From a virus (lineage: Duplodnaviria > Heunggongvirae > Uroviricota > Caudoviricetes): a stretch of 64,000 nucleotides of DNA. Below are positions 37,056 to 42,624 of this stretch, piece by piece; position 1 is the stretch's first letter, and every line of letters begins with the position of its first letter. The DNA lies in IMG/VR virus record IMGVR_UViG_2880412407_000011. The stretch is one strand, 5' to 3'. The position numbers and the translations under genes were made by a program. The notes below the pieces were generated by a model, which was not told the DNA's origin, did no database searches, and saw only the letters and a program-made list of their open reading frames with translations.

Positions 37056-37613
37056 ATGAGCACTATTACCAGAGAACGCGCGGAGATTAAATCATACATC
37101 ACAGGCTTCCTGAGCGACTCGGCGCACGATAACAAGTCTTCAGACAGCCTGCTGGCTAATGTGTTTCGTATCGCGCTGGCATCACTGGAAGCAGAGCCGA
37201 TAGCAATGGTAGTGCCTGATGAAATGGATTTGCTTACCTGCCATCTCGACGGTGTAACTAAAACATATGCTGATGGCTGGAACGCCTGCCGCGTCGCCAT
37301 GCTTCAGGCCGGAAACTTTCGGGAAAATAAGAATTCGTCAACCAACAATTTTCGGGAAATCTCGGAAACGTCAACCAGATCTCCGATAACTCTGGATGGC
37401 TGGATAAGCTGTACTGAGCGAATGCCTGAAAAGAGCCAGAACGTGCTTATTTCGATGAATATCGATAGCGAGGCTGGGCCATTAATATATTCCGCACGCT
37501 ATCTCGGAGGCACGTTCCGGCGCGGAGGTATAGCAGTTAGTCCGGGTAATGATCTTAGGCAAGCAACCCACTGGATGTCGCGACCAGAACCGCCGCAGGA
37601 GGTGAATCAATGA
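37056..37613 (+). CDS. hypothetical protein (DUF551-like C-terminus)
   Basis: 185-aa ORF; ATG overlaps previous stop. Confidence 0.45.
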   Translation: MSTITRERAEIKSYITGFLSDSAHDNKSSDSLLANVFRIALASLEAEPIAMVVPDEMDLLTCHLDGVTKTYADGWNACRVAMLQAGNFRENKNSSTNNFREISETSTRSPITLDGWISCTERMPEKSQNVLISMNIDSEAGPLIYSARYLGGTFRRGGIAVSPGNDLRQATHWMSRPEPPQEVNQ

Positions 37614-37903
37614 CCTGGCCTGAAGCATTCACAACGGTAGGAATTGCGATGGCGGTGGCGCTGGTGGTGTATTCGATTTGCCGCTGGGGATAAAAACGGT
37701 TTGCGGGAAAAGGATAGTTAAGTAGAATTGCTGCGGGTGCTTGAGGCTATCTGCCTCGGGCATGAACACCAACGGCAGATAGAGAAAAGCCCCAGTTAAC
37801 ATTACGCGTCCTGCAAGACGCTTAACATTAATCTGAGGCTCAATCCATGCTGAACACATGTAGGTTAGCCTCTTACGTGCCGAAAGGCAAGGAGAAGCAG
37901 GCT

Positions 37904-38059
37904 ATGAAGCAGCAAAAGGCGATGTTAATCGCCCTGATCGTCATCTGTTTAACCGTCATAGTGACGGCACTGGTAACGAGGAAAGACCTCTGCGAGGTGC
38001 GAATCCGAACCGGTCAGACGGAGGTCGCTGTCTTCGTAGACTACGAATCTGAGAAGTAA
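37904..38059 (+). CDS. hokD: Hok/Gef-family type I toxin (HokD/RelF-like)
   Basis: 51 aa MKQQKAMLIALIVICLTVIVTALVTRKDLCEVRIRTGQTEVAVF... matches E. coli RelF/HokD by recollection. Confidence 0.8.
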   Translation: MKQQKAMLIALIVICLTVIVTALVTRKDLCEVRIRTGQTEVAVFVDYESEK

Positions 38060-38178
38060 GAGACCAGGCGGGGGAGTAATCTCCCGCCACCTCTGATGTG
38101 TCAGGCATCCTCAACGCACCCGCGCTTTACCATACTGAAAATGCTGTTTGAATGTTCATCTCTGAAAGAGGACTATGA

Positions 38179-38523
38179 ATGAAAAAGGTATTGATTGCAG
38201 CACTTATTTCCGGTGTGTCTTTTGGCGCTTTTGCACAGCAGGGTGGTTTCCAGGGGCCAGAAGCAGAGCGTTCAACAGTAGCGCAGGCAAAAGAACTGAA
38301 GGATGATGCATGGGTTATCCTTGAAGGGAGCATCGTTAAAAAAGTGGGTGATGAACGTTATGAGTTTCGTGACAATAGCGGGACAATTGTCACGGATATT
38401 GATGACAGCGTATGGGCCGGGCAGAATGTTTCTCCGAAAGACAAAGTAAGAATTGAGGGTGAAATTGATAAAGACCTGAGCAGTGTTGAAGTTGATGTAA
38501 AGGCACTGAAATTATTAAAGTAA
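38179..38523 (+). CDS. YgiW/YdeI-family (BOF) periplasmic OB-fold stress protein
   Basis: 114 aa with signal peptide MKKVLIAALISGVSFGAFAQ; family-typical length and ...RYEFRDNSGTI.V.ID...W motif. Confidence 0.75.
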   Translation: MKKVLIAALISGVSFGAFAQQGGFQGPEAERSTVAQAKELKDDAWVILEGSIVKKVGDERYEFRDNSGTIVTDIDDSVWAGQNVSPKDKVRIEGEIDKDLSSVEVDVKALKLLK

Positions 38524-38644
38524 CCGCCCCTGCTTGTTAAGCCCGTCTTACTGACGGGTTTTCTGTTTGTACATTCCGGCGTATTGCCTTACAATTCGCG
38601 CAGTCAGCCTGAACAACTGACACCTGCTGTCACCGGAGAATCCG

Positions 38645-42202: not shown

Positions 42203-42278
42203 GGCCCTTTAGCTCAGTGGTGAGAGCGAGCGACTCATAATCGCCAGGTCGCTGGTTCAAATCCAGCAAGGGCCACCA
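42203..42278 (+). tRNA. tRNA-Ile (anticodon CAU, ileX/ileZ-like) - could alternatively be scored as tRNA-Met
   Basis: 76 nt cloverleaf, acceptor GGCCCTT/AAGGGCC, anticodon loop CTCATAA, 3' CCA; closely resembles E. coli ileX. Confidence 0.8.
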
Positions 42279-42368: not shown

Positions 42369-42445
42369 TCGGTATTCTGCGTTGTTAGCTCAGCCGGACA
42401 GAGCAATTGCCTTCTAAGCAATCGGTCAGTGGTTCGACTCCACTA
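42369..42445 (+). tRNA. tRNA-Arg (anticodon UCU)
   Basis: 77 nt, acceptor GCGTTGT/ACAACGC, anticodon loop CTTCTAA, 3' CCA. Confidence 0.8.
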
Positions 42446-42624
42446 CAACGCGCCACACTTATTTTCCAGGCTCGCTTCGGCGGGCCTTTTTTGTATCTGC
42501 GCCACGCCCGGCGCATATCAACCACAGAGCCTTTCGGGGGTGAGCTTACGGAGTGGTCAGTGTGACTTTCTCTGTGGGCAGATCGCTCCCGGGCGTTGGC
42601 TCACCCACCCAAAGGAACGTCACG

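Follow-up and report, generated by a model that had tools for sequence, protein, structure and literature searches.

A known hokW–sokW toxin locus of a lambdoid prophage and a probable small membrane-protein gene at its upstream border

The DNA analysed here, called the window, is a stretch of 64,000 nucleotides from a Caudoviricetes record of IMG/VR (IMGVR_UViG_2880412407_000011). On its plus strand it carries a small toxin gene, hokW (37904–38059), which encodes a protein of 51 amino acids. This protein matches the Pfam family HOK_GEF (PF01848, E=4.3e-23; 81 bits against a cut-off of 22) and PHROG 251 (1e-32), and it is identical to HokW of phage 933W. A longer reading frame, mokW (37847–38059, plus strand), consists of 70 codons, is in frame with hok and ends at the same stop codon. 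A gene annotated as mokW occupies the matching position in 933W. Upstream of both lies an open reading frame (ORF) of 27 codons and a stop (37610–37693, plus strand). Its product, MTWPEAFTTVGIAMAVALVVYSICRWG, is a predicted single-pass membrane peptide.

A sequence-only reading of the window had placed the hok ORF and the 27-codon ORF at exactly these positions. It had also described the toxin as HokD/RelF-like and as a member of the Hok family, which agrees with the HOK_GEF match and with identity to K-12 HokD at 47 of 51 residues.

The region from 37000 to 38600 matches prophages of E. coli O121:H19 at 100% identity and those of O157:H7 at 99.9%. In RefSeq, an identical copy is annotated within a lambdoid prophage, where it belongs to the early-right operon. 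The genes there run in the order replication gene P, DUF1627, small genes, DUF4014, DUF551, Hok/Gef, a NirD/YgiW/YdeI (BOF) protein, a hypothetical protein, DUF968, and RusA. The earlier remark that no relBE-like genes lie upstream of hok is correct, and DUF4014 and DUF551 are found there instead. The DUF551 gene of the window (37056–37613, plus strand; Pfam DUF551, E=7e-18; annotated in RefSeq) belongs to this early-right, or nin-region, operon.

On the other side of hok lies a gene of the BOF/YgiW-YdeI family (38179–38523, plus strand; Pfam BOF, 1.9e-33), which starts 120 nt past the hok stop. It accompanies hokW within one mosaic block, 37595–38570, which is 97.3% identical to 933W. The hok and BOF genes may be co-transcribed. 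If so, the fbi element described below would be internal to the transcript and not near its 3' end.

Other RNA features in the window are DicF (30450–30501, minus strand), IS009 (19561–19759, plus strand), the ALIL frameshift pseudoknot of an IS3-family element (25551–25667, minus strand), and STnc100 (43225–43397, plus strand). Two tRNA genes, tRNA-Met(CAT) at 42203–42278 and tRNA-Arg(TCT) at 42379–42455, are located on the plus strand 3' of a Q-like gene. Taken as a whole, the window appears to consist of the late and tail genes of one prophage (about 1–20 kb) joined across IS elements to the early region of another.

The hok gene is preceded by a structured leader, which the sequence-only reading had put at about 200 bp. 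The Rfam model RF01794 matches 37735–37909 on the plus strand over its full length, with 113.5 bits against a gathering score of 59. Measured from the predicted +1 (37735) to the hok ATG, the leader is 169 nt long. RF01794 is named “sok”, yet its match here is to the hok leader in sense orientation, with the hok AUG at its end. The predicted hok promoter (37701–37728, plus strand), read by eye, has a -35 hexamer TTGCGG (37701–37706), a 16-nt spacer, and a -10 hexamer TAGAAT (37723–37728), which would place the start of transcription near 37735. It is invariant across four aligned loci save for one spacer base.

The predicted hokW mRNA, based on the Rfam match and the fold, extends from tac to just past fbi (37735–38128, plus strand). 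No terminator was found downstream of fbi, so the 3' end given here is nominal. The fold of this 394-nt RNA has a minimum free energy of -162.6 kcal/mol (z=-7.4). In the full-length RNA, the 5' end or tac element (GGGUGCUUGAGG, 37735–37746, plus strand) is predicted to pair with the fbi element (CCUCAACGCACCC, 38109–38121, plus strand). Folding thus predicts the fbi/tac-like elements that the sequence-only reading had suggested looking for. When the last 33 nt are removed, the 5' end forms a local hairpin in the predicted fold. The fbi element is kept in K-12 hokD and in the four aligned loci. A tac/fbi closing helix as in hok of plasmid R1 is therefore predicted for this locus too.

Loci of the hokD type (K-12 and two further loci, L004 and L005) have a CCCGCTTCGGCGGGTTTTT terminator after fbi. 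It is missing from the loci of the hokW type (the window and 933W; region 38060–38180).

The antisense RNA sokW is encoded on the minus strand (37855 to 37785; coordinates carried over from the 933W sokW feature). It would start near 37855 and is complementary to the mok start region, so that the mok AUG at 37847 falls within the Sok-complementary stretch. In the predicted fold (z=-5.2), 14 nt at the 5' end are left unpaired, and a long hairpin and a U-rich tail follow. One base is changed relative to 933W, in the hairpin loop. The sok-like promoter that had been thought worth a search on the minus strand is present at 37890 to 37862, with a -35 hexamer TTGCCT (37890 to 37885), a 17-nt spacer, and a -10 hexamer TAACCT (37867 to 37862). 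In published work on the prophage Sp5, primer YO-421 replaces exactly this -10 hexamer, and the resulting mutant is without antitoxin activity (PMC8621323). The window is identical to the wild-type sequence of that study at this site.

A consensus promoter and terminator scan of 37400–38300 found no terminator-like site, and it flagged neither the hok promoter nor the sok promoter. The scan requires four of six matches per hexamer, and both promoters fall below this rule. Because both were missed, the negative results of the scan carry little weight.

In a direct alignment with the hokW/mokW/sokW locus of 933W, the stretch 37696–38180 shows only 3 base differences (0.6%). One affects the spacer of the hok promoter, one the loop of the Sok hairpin, and one the hairpin past the hok stop. 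The 976-bp block that the window shares with 933W is also present in Sp5 (VT2-Sakai), at 97.4% identity to the window. Judged by its sequence, the toxin gene is the known hokW–sokW system of Shiga-toxin-type E. coli prophages, with the antisense control elements intact. The sequence-only reading had considered the control of this hok copy unclear. That doubt can be dropped, since the locus is the studied hokW/mokW/sokW locus with its sok promoter, sok hairpin, mok frame, and tac and fbi elements. The hok/sok locus of the window is nothing new; it is an already characterised system.

The function of this system has been described for Sp5 by Takada et al. 2021 (PMC8621323). HokW of Sp5 stops growth and is located at the inner membrane, and sokW expressed from its own promoter neutralises it. 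After treatment with mitomycin C, sokW RNA is lost in a RecA-dependent manner, and HokW is seen about an hour ahead of endolysin. The reported role of hokW is to help phage release, not plasmid maintenance (all PMC8621323).

The small ORF upstream of this locus is closely linked to the preceding gene. Its ATG shares bases with the DUF551 stop codon TGA (37611–37613), forming an ATGA overlap (37610–37613). A Shine-Dalgarno motif, GGAGGTG (37598–37604, plus strand; read from the sequence), lies 5 nt before the ATG, inside the end of the DUF551 gene. The TAA stop ends at 37693, 8 nt ahead of the predicted hok -35. The small ORF thus ends before the hok promoter begins and is not part of the predicted hok mRNA.

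The peptide has a GRAVY of 1.09, and its best 17-residue Kyte-Doolittle window scores 2.11. This hydropathy fits one membrane helix, as the sequence-only reading had predicted. By the positive-inside rule, R25 would lie inside and E5 outside. The possibility that a programmed frameshift joins DUF551 to the membrane helix was considered, but no slippery site was seen.

The published clone pBAD18-hokW-sokW (primers YO-432 and YO-433; PMC8621323) starts with GAATCA followed by the ATG of the small ORF, and its other end falls within the BOF gene. The small ORF is thus cloned in full, but its native Shine-Dalgarno motif is left out. The paper makes no mention of the ORF (PMC8621323).

Short reading frames are common in this DNA: 51 ORFs of at least 20 amino acids overlap the 3-kb stretch around the small ORF. 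What raises the 27-codon ORF above chance is the pattern of conservation across its copies, not its length alone. Copies were gathered by scanning IMG/VR with a degenerate DNA pattern that fixes 10 of the 27 codons, which together with other loci gave 127 copies. The ORF has exactly 27 codons in 126 of these, and the ATGA overlap is found in all 127. A GGAGG-like motif precedes nearly all of them. Among the 55 distinct sequences, frame 0 is the only plus-strand frame that is open in every one.

The substitutions are also those expected of a coding sequence. On a minimum spanning tree, changes at codon positions 1, 2, and 3 number 34, 40, and 84 (chi-square p=7e-7), and synonymous changes make up a fraction of 0.47 where 0.29 would be expected (p=4e-6). 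Both counts cover the 17 codons left free by the search pattern, and the copies are related, so the p-values overstate independence. Pairwise pN/pS in the unconstrained codons is 0.44–0.46, which corresponds to moderate selection. In 53 of the 55 sequences, the antisense frame with the same wobble positions is open too, and its pN/pS is similar. Start, stop, Shine-Dalgarno motif, and block borders favour the forward frame over this antisense frame.

The most diverged allele, MIWPEAFAITGVAIAIDFLVYVICRWG, differs at 28 of 84 nt (7, 5, and 16 by codon position), and it keeps the length and is still hydrophobic. Alleles that fall outside the search pattern also have 27 amino acids; they are MNWPEAFTAVGVAIAVAFILYSLFRWG in VT1-Sakai and MTWPEAFTTVGVVMAVAFAVYSVCRWG in a virulent Vequintavirinae phage. 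In complete E. coli genomes, many BLAST matches span exactly the ATG to the stop, with unrelated DNA on either side. The gene upstream varies and may be DUF551, one of two hypothetical proteins, a dATP/dGTP pyrophosphohydrolase, EaA, or Ea22. Purifying selection in frame is thus found together with a conserved start, stop, and ribosome-binding site, as would be expected of a genuine gene. Individual pairs of alleles can look different. The window and 933W differ by 6 amino-acid changes and 2 synonymous ones, and in several other pairs amino-acid changes likewise outnumber silent ones.

The 84-nt ORF, at a coverage of at least 80%, is present in 1629 of 5426 complete E. coli genomes (about 30%). 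It is found at up to 7 places per genome, and 163 places are on plasmids. Most copies are at least 90% identical. A tblastn search detected it in 93 phage records and in 180 plasmids of E. coli, Salmonella, and one Klebsiella, mostly non-mobilizable and about 90–100 kb in size. In a scan of one genome per species, true copies were found only in Escherichia and Shigella, plus two tiny contigs of about 400 bp, assigned to Xanthomonas and Acinetobacter, which look like contamination with E. coli phage. A looser pattern applied to genome contigs gave 8 stretches. Matches in Pantoea and in two Verrucomicrobia are due to chance, as they have no ATGA, no Shine-Dalgarno motif, and other lengths. The family is nearly confined to phages and phage-plasmids of Escherichia and Shigella. 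With so narrow a range, the copies are young and partly non-independent. Of the K-12 prophages, Qin and Rac were checked, and neither has a copy.

The ORF is also found in other phage settings. In the virulent 134-kb myovirus vB_EcoM_TH18 (Vequintavirinae; L138, 1501–1584) it lies between EaA and ea22, with no hok nearby. In VT1-Sakai (L137, 1201–1284) it is the last ORF ahead of xis-int. These two contexts suggest that the small ORF travels with Ea-type early genes, beyond nin regions.

Annotation of the ORF is sparse. Some submitters to NCBI have annotated the exact peptide, under the name “hypothetical protein” or “bacteriophage protein”. None of the records inspected, namely four RefSeq loci, 933W, and VT1-Sakai, annotates the ORF. 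Pfam, NCBIfam, and PHROGs offer no credible family (best E-values 0.01–0.04). Comparison by sequence detected no relationship to known small membrane proteins; the only match, to KdpF, has E=0.024 over 12 residues and is below the family cut-off. An exact-sequence look-up groups the peptide in clusters together with DUF551 proteins; on inspection these show no true fusion and contain only partial or over-extended gene calls. The small-gene supplements of ribosome profiling in Sakai and a full-text literature search for the peptide gave no mention of it. Early prophage genes are repressed under the conditions of such ribosome-profiling studies. Taken together, the small ORF is probably a real, widespread, and unannotated small membrane-protein gene that belongs to the neighbouring phage operon and is not part of the toxin system.

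The DNA that follows the small ORF is highly variable. In the 119 loci with enough downstream DNA to judge, a hok gene lies downstream on the same strand within 1.2 kb in 76 and is absent in 43. The first 300 nt after the ORF fall into 18 sequence classes. The largest class has hok/sok directly after the small ORF (49 loci). Others have a second small hydrophobic ORF and then hok (18 loci), a terminator and a RelE/ParD pair (10 loci), more early genes (9 loci), or a terminator and then hok (6 loci). Further contents are HigBA-like pairs, Phd/Doc-like pairs, antirepressor-type genes, a cytosine methylase (Dcm-type) cut into the hok leader, and the prophage end. Inspected loci illustrate this range. 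The same hypothetical protein precedes the small ORF in loci where a RelE/ParD pair follows on the opposite strand or where hokD follows. In another, a dATP/dGTP pyrophosphohydrolase precedes a small ORF that lies at the very end of the prophage, beside chromosomal genes. The small ORF is the fixed left border of a variable cargo slot, of which hok/sok is the commonest but not the sole cargo.

The sequence-only reading had treated the small ORF as an addition to the hok locus, and this part of it does not stand. Its translation is coupled to that of DUF551, hok is missing from 43 of the 119 loci that carry it, and at least one remnant of the hok leader exists without it. It is thus not a conserved part of hok loci. 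Divergence between the window and 933W falls from about 13% in the small ORF (11 of 84 nt) to 0.6% in hok/sok, which points to a recombination break at the stop codon of the small ORF.

Several loci show how the slot is built. Variable contents are seen in L003, L006, L017, L029, L054, L086, L107, L119, and others, and in several classes an intrinsic terminator lies within a few bases of the small-ORF stop. In L086 and L089 the hok promoter and the 5' tac hairpin are intact, and the leader is cut after about 95 nt, with a DNA cytosine methyltransferase gene in place of the rest. These two are an example of cargo replacement within a hok locus. L139 (E. coli CFSAN061762, 901–953) is a hok promoter/tac remnant with 87% identity and no small ORF upstream. 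It has an ISNCY transposase fragment about 260 nt downstream, and the same short match occurs in many complete E. coli genomes. In 20 loci, L041 among them, there is a second conserved hydrophobic ORF of 28 amino acids, MSDDISLAMEGALAVIAVVGVYCLVVFL, with its own GGAGG motif. It starts 36 nt past the first small ORF, which is a diverged allele there, and lies before hok. In L039 a 68-aa protein with a similar hydrophobic tail occupies the same place.

The explanation proposed here is that two independent units lie side by side, the hokW/mokW/sokW locus (37696 to about 38130) and a separate 27-codon gene that is the last cistron of the operon before it. The probability of this reading is put at roughly 0.7. 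In the first unit, a stable hok mRNA starting at about 37735 would be held closed by pairing of its 5' end with fbi. Translation of hok would depend on the in-frame mok, and SokW (37855 to 37785, minus strand) would cover and block the mok start. Once SokW is gone, HokW would be made and would damage the inner membrane. In the second unit, the small ORF would end the upstream early operon, translationally coupled to the DUF551 stop and served by its own Shine-Dalgarno motif. The peptide would reside at the inner membrane and, as a best guess, modulate a membrane protein of the host or of the phage during lytic growth.

The neighbourhood itself invites another reading, in which the small ORF is a component of the hok system, either a second membrane toxin or a modulator of Hok insertion or of mok/hok expression. 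In 76 of 119 loci the ORF is followed within 1.2 kb by a hok gene in the same orientation, in 49 it directly abuts the hok promoter, and both genes encode small hydrophobic peptides. The insert of pBAD18-hokW-sokW begins at the small-ORF ATG, so that both were cloned together, apparently unnoticed (PMC8621323). Yet the other 43 copies have different cargo or a prophage end within the same distance, the hok-leader remnant and K-12 hokD do without the small ORF, and the virulent phage has its copy between EaA and ea22 with hok not nearby. The position upstream of the hok promoter, the coupling to the preceding gene, and the break at the stop codon (13% against 0.6%) also speak against membership in the hok system, which is considered very improbable. 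The ORF might still be a toxin in its own right, a type I-like membrane toxin that is silenced in the lysogen by prophage repression instead of an antisense RNA. In size and hydrophobicity it resembles short membrane toxins such as DinQ and TisB, which have 27–29 amino acids, and the early lytic operon would be its sole source of expression. Of the marks of a type I toxin it has the short hydrophobic peptide. An own promoter, a long, structured 5' UTR, or an antisense gene was not seen, in a scan so weak that it also missed the real sok promoter. It is moreover coupled to ordinary early genes and occurs in a virulent phage. Arabinose-driven pBAD18-hokW-sokW caused no growth defect (PMC8621323), which says little, as the clone is without the native Shine-Dalgarno motif. 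An independent toxin is given equally long odds.

Both of these readings assume that the peptide is made. Alternatively, the small ORF may be untranslated, a chance frame in a young, recombination-prone linker that ends Ea/DUF551-type genes. The narrow host range and the identity of at least 90% among most copies would suit such a linker, as would the abundance of short ORFs here and the allele pairs richer in amino-acid than in silent changes. PGAP made no call in the four RefSeq loci inspected, and no Pfam, NCBIfam, or PHROGs family covers the peptide. Against a chance frame stand the excess of third-position and synonymous changes on the minimum spanning tree (p about 1e-6) and the retention of length, start, stop, ATGA, and Shine-Dalgarno motif at up to 33% nucleotide divergence. 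Replacements remain hydrophobic, and mosaic block borders fall exactly at the ends of the ORF. A chance frame is therefore regarded as improbable.

If the toxin locus and the small gene are indeed two adjacent units, their arrangement may matter at induction. Antiterminated transcription of the early operon would then continue across the hok locus, meet the convergent sok promoter head-on, and shut sok off. The idea comes from the window, where no terminator is found between the small ORF and hok, and as a mechanism it is conjecture. Shutting off sok in this way would explain the RecA-dependent loss of sokW reported for Sp5. In 933W the hokW block is at the right end of the prophage, on the same strand as int at the left end, across att. 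There, transcription from PL would reach the block only once the prophage has been excised and circularised. A point against read-through is the terminator that separates the small ORF from hok in some loci.

A more far-reaching proposal combines several of these points. The small ORF would found an unnamed family of small membrane proteins, present in about 30% of complete E. coli genomes, in phage-plasmids of P1 size, and in virulent Vequintavirinae; it would border a cargo slot; and read-through would switch on HokW at induction. As a whole this combination is rather unlikely, and it is put forward tentatively.

The small ORF is a modest but concrete lead, being very common in prophages of pathogenic E. 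coli and having clean signs of coding. As it adjoins an exchange point of toxin–antitoxin and accessory genes, it could serve as an anchor for cataloguing the cargo slot. Tagging it or knocking it out should also be easy. Read-through, if true, would be the missing switch of HokW, and it would answer which step of induction removes sokW RNA, a question left open by the Sp5 study.

The closest known relatives of the locus are 933W (AF125520) and Sp5 of the Sakai strain, which share with the window the BOF/YgiW-like gene downstream. 933W has annotated mokW, hokW, and sokW antisense RNA, and a 27-codon ORF lies upstream, as in the window. The two copies differ in their small-ORF allele (11 of 84 nt) and in their setting. 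In the window the block lies in the nin region, between replication gene P and DUF968/RusA, whereas in 933W it lies at the right end of the prophage beside tail-fibre genes.

For the small peptide, similar cases exist among small proteins of other kinds. KdpF, AcrZ, and MgtS are examples of the small single-pass membrane proteins that E. coli and its phages encode, and TisB and DinQ are short type I toxins. All are of similar length with a single hydrophobic helix, and the small ORF has likewise been missed by annotation.

The founding member of the toxin family is hok/sok of plasmid R1. Its layout is that of the window locus: mok and hok share a frame, the tac element at the 5' end pairs with fbi at the 3' end, and the antisense Sok RNA combines an unpaired 5' tail with a terminator hairpin. 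R1 is a plasmid, whereas the window locus is in a prophage and no terminator was found after its fbi. HokW is 44% identical to R1 Hok (PMC8621323).

The hokD (relF) gene of the K-12 prophage Qin is closer in sequence, sharing the 47 of 51 residues noted above. Qin has no copy of the small ORF. A DUF968 gene (ydfU) adjoins hokD there, as DUF968 is found in the neighbourhood of the window locus. The Shine-Dalgarno motif, coding region, 3' hairpin, and fbi of hok are shared between the two. However, the DNA of the two is homologous only from about 15 nt ahead of the hok ATG through fbi; where the window has tac, the mok start, and sok with its promoter, K-12 has relE and relB. Since the homology lacks the leader, the window holds the complete locus and the Qin copy is the truncated one.
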